Positions 1,040-5,297 of a DNA stretch of 5,297 nucleotides are shown here, one piece after another. The notes below the pieces were generated by a model. That model made no database searches and was not told the DNA's origin. It saw only the letters and a program-made list of their open reading frames with translations. The stretch's first letter is position 1, and every line of letters starts with the position of its first letter. Made by a program: the position numbers and the translations under genes. Source of the DNA: a virus (Duplodnaviria; Heunggongvirae; Uroviricota; Caudoviricetes). The DNA is taken from IMG/VR virus record IMGVR_UViG_2531839665_000011, one strand, 5' to 3'.

Positions 1040-1433
1040 ATGCGTAAACTTTATGCCGCCATTTTGTCCGCAGCCATTTGTCTGGCCGTATCCGGTGCGC
1101 CTGCATGGGCGTCTGAACATCAGTCCACGCTGAGCGCGGGGTATCTTCATGTCTCGACGAACGTTCCCGGCAGCGATGATCTGAACGGGATTAACGTGAA
1201 ATACCGTTATGAGTTTACGGACACACTGGGGATGGTGACGTCTTTCAGCTATGCAGGAGACAAGAATCGCCAGCTGACCCATTACAGCGATACCCGCTGG
1301 CATGAAGATTCCGTTCGTAACCGCTGGTTCAGCGTGATGGCGGGGCCCTCTGTGCGCGTGAATGAATGGTTCAGCGCGTATGCGATGGCGGGCGTGGCTT
1401 ACAGCCGTGTGTCGACTTTTTCCGGGGATTATC
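1040..1433 (+). pseudogene. lom: lom 5' fragment (Ail/Lom/PagC-family outer membrane protein), interrupted by IS insertion
   Basis: RBS GAGAGG upstream of ATG 1040. Signal peptide MRKLYAAILSAAICLAVSGAPAWA, then sequence matching lambda Lom up to ...STFSGDYLR. The ORF then runs into IS terminal sequence (ITVKEIGE, stop at 1463-1465). The rest of Lom resumes at 4015. Confidence 0.85.
1429..1433. repeat. Target-site duplication, left copy (TTATC); alternative reading is a 7-bp ATTATCT at 1428-1434
   Basis: lom sequence ggggATTATCT is present at the left junction and ATTATCTccgcgtaactgac at the right junction; the overlap is the duplicated target. Confidence 0.5.
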
Positions 1434-1482
1434 TGCGTATTACCGTGAAGGAGATCGGTGAGTAACATCGATGGAGATCGGT
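1434..1482. repeat. IS left terminal inverted repeat region
   Basis: TGCGTATTACCGTGAAGGAGATCGGTGAGTAACATCGATGGAGATCGG pairs with the reverse complement of the right end, TGCGTATTTTCATGAAAGGAGATCACTCAATAACTTCCATCGAGATCGG. Confidence 0.6.
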
Positions 1483-1518
1483 TCGTGTCACTTTCACAGA
1501 ACCGTTTTTAAATTACCT

Positions 1519-2268
1519 TCACTGATCTCCTTCGGTCAACGGAGATTGTATTTTCCGCATTGATTCTCCTTTAAGTTCGATCTTGATACTGCCATGAACC
1601 AGTCGATCTAGGATGGCATCCGCATGTGTGGAGTCTCCGATCATTTTGTACCAGTTTTCCACCGGCAACTGGCTCACTACGATGATTGAGCCTCGTTGGT
1701 ACATCAGATCCACTATTTCCAGCAGGTCGCTACGCTGTTCTGATGAGAGAGGTTCCAGCCCCCAGTCATCCAGAAGCAGCAGATCGCTATTATTCAGCCT
1801 GGTCAAAAGTTTGCTGTATCTTCCATCAGCATGCCCCTGATAGCACTGTTCCATCAGCGCTTTAAGGCGATAATAGTAGACCTTGTATCCCTGTCGGCAG
1901 GCATTATGACCAAGTGCACATGCCAGGAACGTTTTACCGCTGCCGGTGGCCCCGGTCAGTAAAATATTTTGTTTCAGGGTTAACCAGTTTCCCTGACTGA
2001 GTGAACGGATGAGGGCCCTGTCCAGCCCTCTATTGTTACGATAATCCAGCTTTGATAACTCAGCATTAAGTCTGAACCGTGCATGTTTGATCAGACGCTC
2101 TGCCTTCCTGTTTTCACGGCAGGTTAGTTCTTCTGCTGTCAGTAATGACAGGCGTTCTTCGAAGCCCAGCTCCTGGTATGTGCCCGGCTGAGCAAGTTGC
2201 TTTTTAAGCGCATCACGGAAGCCGGTGAGTTTAAGTGCGGTCAGTTGTTCGTAAAGATGATTCATCAT
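1519..2268 (-). CDS. istB: IS21-family helper ATPase IstB (AAA+/DnaC-like)
   Basis: 249 aa. Walker A GATGSGKT and Walker B LLLLDDWG. Start ATG at 2266-2268 preceded by GGGA, 11 nt after the istA stop. Confidence 0.9.
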   Translation of the reverse strand: MMNHLYEQLTALKLTGFRDALKKQLAQPGTYQELGFEERLSLLTAEELTCRENRKAERLIKHARFRLNAELSKLDYRNNRGLDRALIRSLSQGNWLTLKQNILLTGATGSGKTFLACALGHNACRQGYKVYYYRLKALMEQCYQGHADGRYSKLLTRLNNSDLLLLDDWGLEPLSSEQRSDLLEIVDLMYQRGSIIVVSQLPVENWYKMIGDSTHADAILDRLVHGSIKIELKGESMRKIQSPLTEGDQ

Positions 2269-2279
2269 TGGATCCCGTA

Positions 2280-3281
2280 TCAGTGGTAATACTCACTGCC
2301 GCGTACGTTTTCGTGTTCCATCGTGGATAACAGATCTGGTTTTGGATCCTGAACAGGTTGTTTATCCAGACCTTTTTCCAGGATCGATTTAATACCTGAC
2401 AGACGCCATACCTTTGTTTTCAGAGCTCTTGCACATGCTGCATTAAGTCTGGCTTTACTGTATTTTTTATGAAGGTTCAGGAGTCCAAGGCAGAAGCGAT
2501 AGCTTTGTTCCGGATGTGGACGAGAGTTCAGTATATGAAGCACATAACTATGAGTTTCACTGCCTATGTGCCCCGCCCATTCCAGAAGACGCTCTGGCGT
2601 CCAGGTGGCATGCTGTCGATGAGCTTCAGGCATGTGCTCGTTGCGGGTACTGTAGCCATAAGTACGCTTGCGCGGGTGCACAGCAACCTCCTGCCCCTGA
2701 TTGAAGAGTCTTACCAGTTCTCCGGAGATCCATGCTTCCAGTTGCTGGCCTAACAGCGAACATGGAACCGAGTAGTAATGTTTGTCGATTTCCACGTGGT
2801 AATCGGCATGAACTCTGACTTTCTTCACCAGGGTGTAACTGTAACTGGCTTCAGGAAGAGGCTTCAGTGCGGGTTTATCAAGCTGGATGAAGAGTTCTGC
2901 ACGTGAATAACCCAACTTCTGCATTATTTTGTTATTCAGTCTTTCCAGCAACTCCCGAATGCGCTGATTAAGCGATGCAAGGCTGTAGAAGATCTCATGC
3001 CTGATTCGGGCCATGATCCAGCGTTCAACAACCTGAACGCCAACTTCAGCTTTGGCTTTATCTTTCGGTTTACGTGGCCGCGCAGGCAAAACTGCGACAT
3101 TATAATGCTCAAGCATCTGCTGGTAGGTAGGGTTAACGTCAGGATCATACTTACATGCCCTGGATGTGGCGCTTTTCAGATTGTCCGGAACAACAAGTTC
3201 AGGAACGCCACCCAACCACTGGAAGCAGCGAACATGACTCATCACCCAGTCTTCAAGCTGCTGAGACCAGGTGGTCTCTGC
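2280..3281 (-). CDS. istA: IS21-family transposase IstA, C-terminal catalytic part (downstream of an in-frame amber codon)
   Basis: Same frame as the N-terminal ORF. Contains VVPDNLKS (second Asp of DDE) and [14 protein letters not shown] (Glu of DDE). Translation is continuous across the 36 nt between the amber codon and the first internal GTG/ATG ([25 protein letters not shown]). Confidence 0.75.
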
Positions 3282-3821
3282 CTATGTGTAACTTGATGCC
3301 CCGAGAACAGCTACGATGACCTGAGCAGTTCTTATTTCTCCGGTCTCAGGGTCGGTAACGCCAACGGTAGGTCCACAGTAATCAACGAAAAGTTTTTCGC
3401 CAGCTTTATGTACCTGACGCATTGATGGTGAAGTGGTTTTGAGCCATTCACGGTACATCCGGCAGTAATGGTTATAGCTGTAAAAACCGCCTGGATTACG
3501 CTCACAGTATTCTTCCCAGAGTAGCTGCAGCGTCACGCATTTATTACGCAGTTCCCGGTGTACTGTAGCCCAGTCAGGCAGAGAGTGCTTCTTCATCTTA
3601 ACCTGGGTCTGAAGGAACGCATGTTTTAGTTTTGTATCATCCCATCCTGTAGGTAAGGGCCACTGCTTTATGCCAAGTTGAGCCGCCCGATTAGCATATC
3701 TGGATACAACGGAAGGGGAGATTGCAAGACTACGACCAATTTGTCGATGGCTGAGTCCAACACCGTATTTAAGCCTAAGAATTTCTTTAAGTTTTCTCAT
3801 AGAAATTGGAACTGTTGGCAT
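3282..3821 (-). CDS. istA: IS21-family transposase IstA, N-terminal part (HTH and first catalytic Asp region), ending at an in-frame TAG
   Basis: ATG at 3819-3821 with AAGGA 7 nt upstream. HTH-like LSHRQIGRSLAISPSVVSRY. LFVDYCG resembles the first DDE Asp region of IS21 IstA. Ends ...GASSYT at amber codon (plus-strand cta, 3282-3284). Confidence 0.75.
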   Translation of the reverse strand: MPTVPISMRKLKEILRLKYGVGLSHRQIGRSLAISPSVVSRYANRAAQLGIKQWPLPTGWDDTKLKHAFLQTQVKMKKHSLPDWATVHRELRNKCVTLQLLWEEYCERNPGGFYSYNHYCRMYREWLKTTSPSMRQVHKAGEKLFVDYCGPTVGVTDPETGEIRTAQVIVAVLGASSYT

Positions 3822-3885
3822 AGGTATCCTTTACCGGAATGGCAAAAGATACAGATCAACACACCTGTGAAGTTCCAATAACATT

Positions 3886-3997
3886 GATGGAGATCACTGA
3901 ATAACAAAATGAGTCAAAAGTGATCTCCATCGATGTTATTCAGCGATCTGTTCAAATGTTATTACCCGATCTCGATGGAAGTTATTGAGTGATCTCC
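3886..3997. repeat. Iterated terminal repeats at the IS right end (putative IstA binding sites)
   Basis: Motif GTTATT-N4-GATCTC(C) as three direct copies at 3935-3950, 3958-3973 and 3981-3997 (23-bp spacing) plus one inverted copy at 3889-3905. Perfect 12-bp inverted repeat GATGGAGATCAC (3886-3897) / GTGATCTCCATC (3920-3931). Confidence 0.7.
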
Positions 3998-4014
3998 TTT
4001 CATGAAAATACGCA
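3966..4014. repeat. IS right terminal inverted repeat region
   Basis: Reverse complement matches the left end with a few mismatches and indels; ends ...AATACGCA. Confidence 0.6.
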
Positions 4015-4019
4015 TTATC
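4015..4019. repeat. Target-site duplication, right copy (TTATC); alternative 7-bp ATTATCT at 4014-4020
   Basis: Same lom-derived sequence as at 1429-1433. Confidence 0.5.
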
Positions 4020-4225
4020 TCCGCGTAACTGACAACAAGGGGAAAACGCATGATGTGCTGACCGGAAGTGATGACGGTCGCCACAGCAACACGTCTCTGG
4101 CGTGGGGGGCTGGCGTGCAGTTTAACCCGACCGAATCCGTGGCCATTGATATTGCTTATGAAGGCTCCGGCAGTGGCGACTGGCGCACTGACGGTTTCAT
4201 CGTGGGTGTCGGTTATAAGTTCTGA
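4015..4225 (+). pseudogene. lom: lom 3' fragment (C-terminal ~70 codons of Lom)
   Basis: Translation YLRVTDNKGKTHDVLTGSDDGRHSNTSLAWGAGVQFNPTESVAIDIAYEGSGSGDWRTDGFIVGVGYKF matches the Lom C-terminus; stop TGA at 4223-4225. The listed ORF start (GTG 3989) lies inside the IS end. Confidence 0.85.
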
Positions 4226-4251
4226 TTAGCCAGGTAACACAGTGTTATGAC

Positions 4252-4279
4252 AGCCCGCCGGTTCAGGCGGGCTTTTTTG
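4252..4279 (+). terminator. Rho-independent terminator downstream of lom
   Basis: Perfect 8-bp stem AGCCCGCC (4252-4259) / GGCGGGCT (4266-4273), 6-nt loop, then a T-run. Confidence 0.6.
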
Positions 4280-4289
4280 TGGGGTGAAT

Positions 4290-5297
4290 ATGGCAGTAAA
4301 GATTTCAGGTGTACTGAAAGACGGCACAGGAAAACCGGTAGAGAACTGCACCATTCAACTGAAAGCCAGACGGACCAGCAGCACGGTGGTGGTGAACACG
4401 GTGGCCTCTGAAAATCCGGATGAAGCCGGTCGTTACAGCATGGACGTTGAGTACGGTCAGTACAGCGTCATTCTGTTGGTGGAAGGATTCCCGCCGTCAC
4501 ATGCCGGGACCATCACCGTGTATGAAGATTCTCAACCCGGTACGCTGAATGATTTTCTCGGTGCCATGTCGGAGGATGACGTCCGGCCGGAGGCACTGCG
4601 CCGTTTTGAACTGATGGTGGAAGAGGTGGCGCGTCACGCTGAGGAGGCGAAGAAGAATGCCGGAGAGGCGGAGACGTCAGCGAGGAATGCCGGCATATCA
4701 GCCAGTCAGGCAGAAGAGAGCGCTGCAAATGCTGACACTTCAGCAGGGGAGGCATCGGAGTCAGCCCGGCAGGCGGCAGAAAGTGCAGCCTCAGCAAAGC
4801 AGTCAGAGGATGCGTCCTCGTCCTCGGCTTCTGCGGCCGCTCAAAAAGCCAGTGAGTCATCACAAAGTGCAGCAGAAGCTGAATTGTCAAGAAAGACGGC
4901 AGAAAGTGCAGCCGGTAATGCAGCCAGGGATGCAACGACCGCAACAGAAAAAGCCCGGGAGTCAGCAGAAAGCGCACAGTCAGCGGAACAAAGCAGGATA
5001 GCGGCGGAAGAGGCCGTAAACCGAATCCCCACCGTGGTGGGACCTCCCGGGCCAAAGGGGGGAACAGGGGGCCCGCGGGTCCTCAGGGGCCGAAGGGTGA
5101 TAAGGGAGAGCGCGGTGACACCGGCCCTGTCGGGGCAACCGGCGAACGGGGACCGGCAGGTGATGCTGGTCCGGCAGGCCCGCAGGGGCCGAAAGGTGAC
5201 AGGGGAGAGCGGGGAGAGACCGGTCTGACGGGAAAATGCAGGTCCACAGGGTCCAAAGGGAGATACCGGTGCGGCAGGCCCGGCAGGCCCACAGGGA
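4290..5297 (+). CDS. stf: Side tail fibre protein Stf (lambda stf/orf401-like), N-terminal part continuing beyond the window; reading frame disturbed in the collagen-like region
   Basis: [17 protein letters not shown]...[25 protein letters not shown] matches the lambda Stf N-terminus, so ATG 4290 is the likely start rather than GTG 4284. Ala/Ser/Glu-rich segment, then Gly-X-Y collagen-like repeats from ~5040. Frame 0 hits TGA at 5226-5228 only because of frame slips at 5057-5071; the Gly-X-Y phase continues in another frame and returns to frame 0 after 5237. Confidence 0.8.
5040..5297 (+). repeat. Collagen-like Gly-X-Y triplet-repeat coding region within stf
   Basis: GPPGPKG (frame 0), then [56 protein letters not shown] (frame +2), then [19 protein letters not shown] (frame 0 again). 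Confidence 0.75.

Follow-up and report, generated by a model that had tools for sequence, protein, structure and literature searches.

A complete ISEc12 element interrupts lom in a lambdoid prophage

The window, i.e. the whole 5,297-bp stretch of viral DNA that we analysed, is a portion of a lambdoid prophage with a 99.7% overall match to E. coli JB2. It encodes the C-terminus of the tail tip protein J (positions 20-973), the lom gene (from 1040), which is split by an insertion sequence (IS), and a side tail fibre gene (from ~4290). The window differs from JB2 at 17 positions, 13 of which, including three single-base insertions, cluster at 5057-5264 in the part of the side tail fibre gene coding for collagen-like Gly-X-Y repeats, where the reading frame is broken. 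These differences could be sequencing or assembly errors or genuine repeat variation. An Rfam search of the window returned no match.

The insertion is a complete ISEc12 element of 2581 bp, located at 1434-4014 on the minus strand, with the termini 5'-TGCGTATT...AATACGCA-3'. It is 100% identical over the full 2581 bp to the annotated copy of E. coli JB2, labelled ISEc12 family by PGAP, and the original prediction of an IS21-family element was thus correct. Hundreds of other copies, which PGAP names 'IS21-like element ISEc12 family', are 99.9% identical to it. ISEc12 was found in 1909 of the 5426 complete E. coli genomes, and hundreds of conjugative resistance and virulence plasmids carry it as well. 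The copy of the JB2 chromosome that corresponds to ours is the only one there.

The boundaries of the element are well defined. The 16 nucleotides at 1434-1449 pair with those at 3999-4014 to form an imperfect terminal inverted repeat whose arms are 81% complementary, and TG...CA tips are present, with TGCGTATT starting at 1434 and AATACGCA ending at 4014. The element is flanked by two copies of the pentanucleotide TTATC (1429-1433 and 4015-4019), and in silico deletion of the IS and of one TTATC restores an intact reading frame for a 199-residue Lom protein. ISEc12 therefore interrupts the prophage lom gene, with a 5-bp target-site duplication.

The transposase gene istA (2280-3821, minus strand) is inactivated in this copy. 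It differs from an intact copy by two changes, a W180* nonsense mutation (TGG to TAG at 3282-3284) and an A183T substitution (3275), and PGAP annotates it with an 'internal stop'. Owing to the nonsense mutation, this ISEc12 copy is non-autonomous. The DNA-binding region is retained in the 179-residue N-terminal IstA fragment, which might in principle act as a competitor for the end repeats. The gene for the AAA+ helper ATPase, istB (1519-2268, minus strand), directly follows istA and is intact; its product matches IstB_IS21 (PF01695) with 227 bits (window 2268-1522). IstA scores 310 bits against the NF033546 profile (IS21 family transposase; cutoff 160), and this general IS21 model was the only one returned by the NCBIfam search, which gave no finer classification. 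Its Pfam domains are rve (residues 139-252) and Mu-transpos_C_2 (322-385), with a weak helix-turn-helix (HTH) match at residues 10-50. Judged by its sequence, the ISEc12 IstA protein is a true member of the IS21 transposase family.

Because ISEc12 lies on the minus strand, the flagged stretch at 3854-3997 is its left, istA-proximal end. The original prediction had called it the right end of the IS, which holds in window coordinates only.

Both ends are built of 23-bp units with a GATC box

Six GATC sites had been reported in this stretch (3854, 3892, 3922, 3945, 3968 and 3991), all of which are present, and their clustering indeed goes beyond chance, as six or more GATC within 141 bp occurred anywhere in the window in only 9 of 2000 dinucleotide-preserving shuffles. 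Over its full length, the window shows no GATC enrichment (25 sites found versus 23 expected). The tetranucleotide is rare in the phage DNA on either side of the IS (2 sites in the 2716 bp of 1-1433 and 4015-5297) and frequent within the IS (23 sites in the 2581 bp of 1434-4014), where the coding interior holds 14. The spacing is also distinctive: GATC-N19-GATC occurs four times, exclusively at the two IS ends, for a chance expectation of 0.11, and none of 200 shuffles reached four occurrences.

From the tip inward, each end consists of a 13-14-bp tip and then 23-bp units with the pattern nnnnnn-GATC(A/G)C-nnn-ATAAC-nnn. The GATC and ATAAC boxes of a unit are ~9-10 bp apart centre to centre, that is, about one helical turn. 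The left end comprises four direct units and one inverted unit, and the right end two direct units and one inverted unit. The GATC boxes thus start at IS positions 21, 44, 67 and 90 (direct) and 120 (inverted) on the left, and at 20 and 43 (direct) and 91 (inverted), counted from the tip, on the right.

On the left, all direct units read on the minus strand. L1 (IS 15-37; 3978-4000; AAAGGAGATCACTCAATAACTTC; GATC 3991-3994) is the predicted IstA site adjoining the cleaved tip, and its register is kept in 10 relatives. It is followed by L2 (IS 38-60; 3955-3977; CATCGAGATCGGGTAATAACATT; GATC 3968-3971) and L3 (IS 61-83; 3932-3954; TGAACAGATCGCTGAATAACATC; GATC 3945-3948). The three copies of GTTATT-N4-GATC originally described at 3935, 3958 and 3981 are real and exactly spaced by 23 bp, but the innermost reads GATCTG rather than GATCTC, and the array is larger than proposed, since a fourth direct unit exists. 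In this L4 unit (IS 84-106; 3909-3931), the GATC box (3922-3925) is intact and the second box is degenerate (TTTGAC). The inverted unit (IS 107-129; 3886-3908, plus strand; GATC 3892-3895) accounts for an inverted copy noticed at 3889-3905. Together with L4, it forms a palindrome with 22-nt arms (3877-3898/3919-3940) and one mismatch, which extends the perfect 12-bp inverted repeat previously recognized at 3886-3897/3920-3931. An extra inverted ATAAC box (AATAAC) is found at 3878-3883 on the plus strand, with no adjoining GATC box. Five of the six GATC are therefore in units; the sixth (3854-3857), in the istA leader, is outside the repeat units and is probably incidental.

At the right IS end (1434-1540), R1 (1447-1469; GAAGGAGATCGGTGAGTAACATC; GATC 1453-1456) and R2 (1470-1492; GATGGAGATCGGTTCGTGTCACT; GATC 1476-1479) are on the plus strand, and the inverted unit (1511-1533, minus strand; GATC 1524-1527) overlaps the istB stop codon. 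Facing inward at either end, the inverted units may serve as operators or have an architectural role. Tandem Repeats Finder reported no repeats in 1400-4050, because the units are only 61-82% alike.

A promoter scan of 3780-4030 on both strands detected no sigma-70-like promoter, and therefore no GATC can be assigned to an istA promoter. When the two ends are placed next to each other (1434-1449 and 4001-4014), a TTCACG motif of the right tip falls 16-17 bp from a TATTTT motif of the left tip. Speculatively, these might form a junction promoter for istA whenever two ends are joined, a situation known from the tandem or circular intermediates of IS21.

GATC is the most conserved part of the unit in the ISEc12 clade

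We gathered relatives of ISEc12 from species-representative genomes, plasmids and other assemblies, and their ends were delimited by the TGC..ATT tips and the inverted repeats. The resulting clade set comprises 10 elements whose IstA proteins are 56-93% identical to that of ISEc12; they come from Escherichia, Enterobacter, a Vibrio-like contig, Xenorhabdus, a metagenome-assembled genome (MAG), Psychromonadaceae, Psychrobium, Pseudoalteromonas, Aeromonas and Rheinheimera.

GATC is in register in 43 of the 44 units of these elements and offset by one base in the remaining one. Its columns hold 1.8 bits each, versus 0.3-0.5 bits for the upstream flank, where the bases just before GATC vary by lineage (GGA, GCT, TTT or GCC). 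GATC is thus the most conserved part of the unit in the clade. Conservation extends to the inner sites. The GATC equivalent to that of L4 is found at IS position 90 or 91 in all 10 elements, and the inverted left GATC (IS 119-122) in nine of them, the exception being the Psychrobium element. The inverted right GATC, ~91 bp from the tip, is present at every right end examined, three right ends being undefinable. An inverted second box at IS 137/138 is kept in the Enterobacter, Aeromonas, Rheinheimera and Pseudoalteromonas relatives, in each case without GATC. The GATC at 3854 is shared with the 93% identical relative only and is missing at that position in the other eight elements. This invariant core across the clade appears to be an unreported regularity.

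Two readings in which the array would have nothing to do with transposition were considered and rejected. A cluster arisen by chance is contradicted by the shuffles, which both the cluster and its spacing exceed, and by the unit register kept in relatives of many genera. The repeats resemble iterons at first glance, as in a plasmid-type replication array. However, the units form inverted IS ends flanking istA and istB, the only genes of the IS, and the context includes no rep or other initiator gene. We regard both readings as extremely improbable.

Two side observations were made in the course of this collection. In a Moraxella osloensis assembly, a 2511-bp contig consisting of the IS only (L003) codes for an IstA protein 100% identical to that of ISEc12, which represents either contamination or a very recent transfer. 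The chromosome of Enterobacter hormaechei carries a hybrid element (L077, 1240-1500 and 3810-3950) with an ISEc12-type left end (GATC) and an ISAs29-type right end (GAAC). The hybrid codes for an IstA with 69% identity to ISEc12 IstA, and no istB gene was called. In the assembly collection, 615 blocks list this protein, indicating that the chimaera is widespread.

Other lineages of the IS21 family use different core tetramers

Outside the clade, the layout of the units persists, and the tetramer found in the GATC register differs among lineages. The conservation of GATC in relatives thus stands at the level of the clade and does not hold at that of the family, where relatives whose repeats lack GATC exist, an observation that the original prediction had named as refuting its hypothesis. 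GAAC is found in ISAs29-like elements of Aeromonas, Klebsiella and E. coli and Salmonella plasmids, all Dam-positive hosts, and in a Francisellaceae element. GGAC is present in the ISPpu7-, ISPsy14- and ISPre4-like elements of Pseudomonas and in Sphingopyxis and Brucella elements (alphaproteobacteria). Other cores are TGCC in a Nitrosomonas element, GGGC in Rhodobacterales elements, and GCCC-type tetramers in elements of the alphaproteobacterial rhizobia and Azospirillum. GATC itself occurs in ISSso4-like elements of Enterobacteriaceae, in ISVch3-like elements of Vibrio vulnificus and Alteromonas, and, in the same register, in IS408 and ISBmu3 of Burkholderia (L058, L059). Every end unit of IS408 and ISBmu3 contains GATC, and ISBmu3 has more than 10 of them. 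In ISFK1 of Bradyrhizobium (L088, 1300-1480 and 3800-3950), every unit contains GATC, located 4-5 nt further out than in ISEc12. A Colwellia homologue named 'ISPsy14' hinted at a clade member in Dam-less Pseudomonas; this was ruled out, as the true ISPsy14, from a P. syringae plasmid, is ISPpu7-like with a GGAC core.

Burkholderia and Bradyrhizobium are not known to have a Dam system. It is established that Dam/SeqA/MutH are confined to Enterobacterales, Vibrionales, Aeromonadales, Alteromonadales and Pasteurellales. A 'Dam cohort' is referred to in PMC8826520 and PMC7174414. We analysed the association with hosts by counting lineages rather than elements. Same-register GATC is found in three of the four lineages whose hosts are Dam-positive and in one of the 11 whose hosts lack Dam (p = 0.03, one-sided Fisher test); when ISFK1 is added, accepting any register, the latter proportion becomes two of 11 (p = 0.08). 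This trend would favour a host-linked role, but it is weak, post hoc and confounded by phylogeny, and it is no evidence for selection by Dam. GATC is neither required in Dam-positive hosts nor restricted to them, since the ISAs29-like elements have GAAC, and Burkholderia IS408 and ISBmu3 keep GATC, as does ISFK1 in another register.

In a neighbour-joining tree of IstA, a rough distance tree with short deep branches, the ISEc12 clade, the ISSso4-like and ISVch3-like elements and IS408/ISBmu3 group together, and the GAAC-containing ISAs29-like elements are nested among them. This topology fits a single putative origin of GATC and one change to GAAC.

The units are predicted IstA-binding sites

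The end architecture of the IS21 family is already known, both for the family and for ISEc12 as a catalogued element. In IS5376, the direct repeats are 23 bp apart, and each contains two conserved boxes (CS1 and CS2) about one turn apart, each of which is contacted in the major groove by the HTH-2 or HTH-1 domain of IstA; integration needs two repeats per end, and an IstA tetramer wraps both ends (PMC10122671). The expectation of multiple end repeats in an IS21-family element thus agrees with the documented IstA-binding architecture, with its 23-bp spacing (PMC10122671).

The ends of ISEc12 closely resemble those of IS21 (L1-L3/R1-R2) and IS5376 (L1/L2 and R1/R2; PDB 8B4H), with 23-bp direct repeats at both ends, two boxes about one turn apart, and repeats that adjoin the TG...CA tips upstream of istA-istB. 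The 5-bp target duplication is also like that in the IS5376 assay. In contrast, the boxes of IS5376 are GC-rich, and those of ISEc12 are the lineage-specific GATC(A/G)C and ATAAC. Unlike IS21 and IS5376, ISEc12 carries one inverted unit at each end, besides a set of four direct units on the left. Its IstA is also longer than that of IS5376 (513 versus ~400 residues), with an N-terminal region that cannot be aligned with the solved protein. Accordingly, when we attempted to map the IstA contacts of the solved structures (8B4H and 8Q4D; R31, K32, T92 and K95) onto ISEc12 IstA, none was mappable, the alignment covering residues 107-391 only. As the N-terminal region is too diverged, neither the contact residues nor the assignment of boxes to HTH-1 and HTH-2 is transferable.

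IstA binding to the ISEc12 units is predicted because the family architecture has such sites. The units in the flagged stretch, the left end of ISEc12, are very probably IstA-binding sites with a GATC recognition core inherited by descent. The two boxes of each unit would be bound by the two N-terminal HTH domains of IstA. By analogy with the IS5376 complex, an IstA tetramer would bind the outermost units (L1/L2 and R1/R2) via the major groove, and the ends would be synapsed by IstA as two superhelical crossings before being cut at the terminal CA. L3, L4 and the inward-facing inverted units would represent accessory sites, possibly autoregulatory or architectural. GATC would then be the recognition tetranucleotide of the IstA of this lineage, sister lineages using GAAC or GGAC at that position.

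Dam methylation as a possible modulator of IstA binding

Dam of E. coli methylates GATC. The eight GATC in the units of ISEc12 (five at the left end, three at the right) will therefore, as a rule, bear N6-methyladenine in the groove predicted to be contacted by IstA. An effect of Dam on IstA binding, the hypothesis put forward in the original prediction, is plausible because the sites are Dam substrates whose methyl groups are located in the groove read by the HTH domains of the family. On these grounds, we see balanced chances that the methylation state measurably affects IstA binding, in one direction or the other. The comparative sequence data neither support nor exclude the Dam hypothesis. 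That host methylation would gate transpososome assembly through a Dam site in every predicted IstA unit at both ends, either blocking it until the sites are hemimethylated or being required for it, appears rather unlikely.

IS10/Tn10, IS50/Tn5 and IS903 are Dam-regulated elements in which one to three GATC are located at one end and in the promoter of the transposase gene, and experiments have shown that dam affects them. ISEc12 is like them in being an element of Dam-positive enterobacteria with GATC within a presumed transposase-binding site. It differs in that GATC is found in all eight sites, at both ends, with no assignable promoter GATC, and in that the Dam effect is hypothetical. A switch of the IS10/IS50 type might have evolved in ISEc12, such that full methylation would block or weaken IstA binding and transposition would take place mainly when the sites are hemimethylated behind the replication fork or when Dam is limiting. 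The position of GATC at the most conserved part of the units, at both ends and in a type of box read through the major groove in the family, is consistent with such a switch. So is the host range: all named hosts of elements with at least 59% IstA identity belong to gammaproteobacterial orders with Dam/SeqA/MutH, except for a doubtful MAG and the IS-only Moraxella contig. Methylation sensing by a transposase is established for Tn10/IS10 (PMC5371812). However, the ISAs29-like elements do well in these hosts with a GAAC core instead, IS408 and ISBmu3 keep GATC in Dam-less Burkholderia, and the association by lineage is weak and confounded by phylogeny, as described above (p = 0.03 or 0.08). The promoter scan upstream of istA detected no sigma-70 promoter, and hence no promoter GATC, and a literature search for IS21 or IstA together with Dam or GATC found no relevant paper that would support the switch for IS21-family elements.

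The geometry of the ends also argues against a switch of that kind, as both carry sites in inverted orientation, whereas the strand-specific mechanism of IS10 has one methylatable end. Because the ISEc12 sites are inverted between the ends, a hemimethylated daughter duplex would present opposite states at the two ends, and therefore a strictly strand-specific mechanism of the IS10 type would not activate both at once. Taking these points together, we regard the evolution of an IS10/IS50-type switch as a tentative and doubtful explanation.

Methylation might also act in the opposite direction, the IstA proteins of the clade preferring or requiring methylated GATC, with the result that the clade would be bound to Dam-positive hosts. 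The RctB iterons of Vibrio cholerae chromosome 2 offer a precedent: like the ISEc12 ends, they are iterated protein-binding repeats (predicted as such in ISEc12), each with a GATC, in a Dam-positive host, and a Dam-dependent modulation of RctB binding to them is documented (PMC8826520). They belong to a replication origin and are bound in a methylation-dependent manner, whereas the ISEc12 repeats are transposon ends that may or may not depend on methylation. In a scan of species-representative genomes, the hosts of the clade were limited to Enterobacterales, Vibrionales, Alteromonadales and Aeromonadales, as would be expected if methylated sites were needed. Nevertheless, that scan used ISEc12-specific peptide patterns, ordinary barriers to horizontal transfer explain the host range equally well, and the relatives in Burkholderia share this core and function in the absence of Dam. 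Methylation-dependent binding thus appears improbable.

Alternatively, the GATC arrays at 23-bp spacing, four consecutive sites on the left and two on the right, might when hemimethylated recruit SeqA, which would briefly hide the IS ends after replication. SeqA binding needs at least two nearby hemimethylated GATC, as also discussed in PMC8826520. Yet the 23-bp period follows from the IstA repeat architecture, being the same in family members without GATC, and 23 bp is ~2 bp off the helical phase. Sequestration by SeqA is accordingly quite improbable.

A functional analogy may be drawn with the maize Ac/Ds elements, which, as predicted for ISEc12, have many short subterminal transposase-binding motifs, each with a methylatable site. 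In Ac/Ds, the hemimethylation state decides transposase binding (PMC5371812). They are eukaryotic hAT elements subject to cytosine methylation and are not homologous to ISEc12, and the resemblance is limited to function.

Implications for ISEc12 and the IS21 family

As it stands, our analysis describes the expected end architecture of a catalogued element, together with an apparently unreported regularity, the GATC core of its units, and a testable hypothesis on the role of Dam. ISEc12 is a common element, present in about a third of complete E. coli genomes. If Dam does gate IstA binding, ISEc12 would be the first element of the IS21 family with a coupling to Dam and would provide the first bacterial multi-site transposon end with every site methylatable. 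The structural basis of methyl sensing would be directly testable, because the transpososome structure of the family is solved. The principle known for IS10, IS50 and IS903 would then extend to the IS21 family, and the mobility of ISEc12 would be tied to replication and to the expression of dam.
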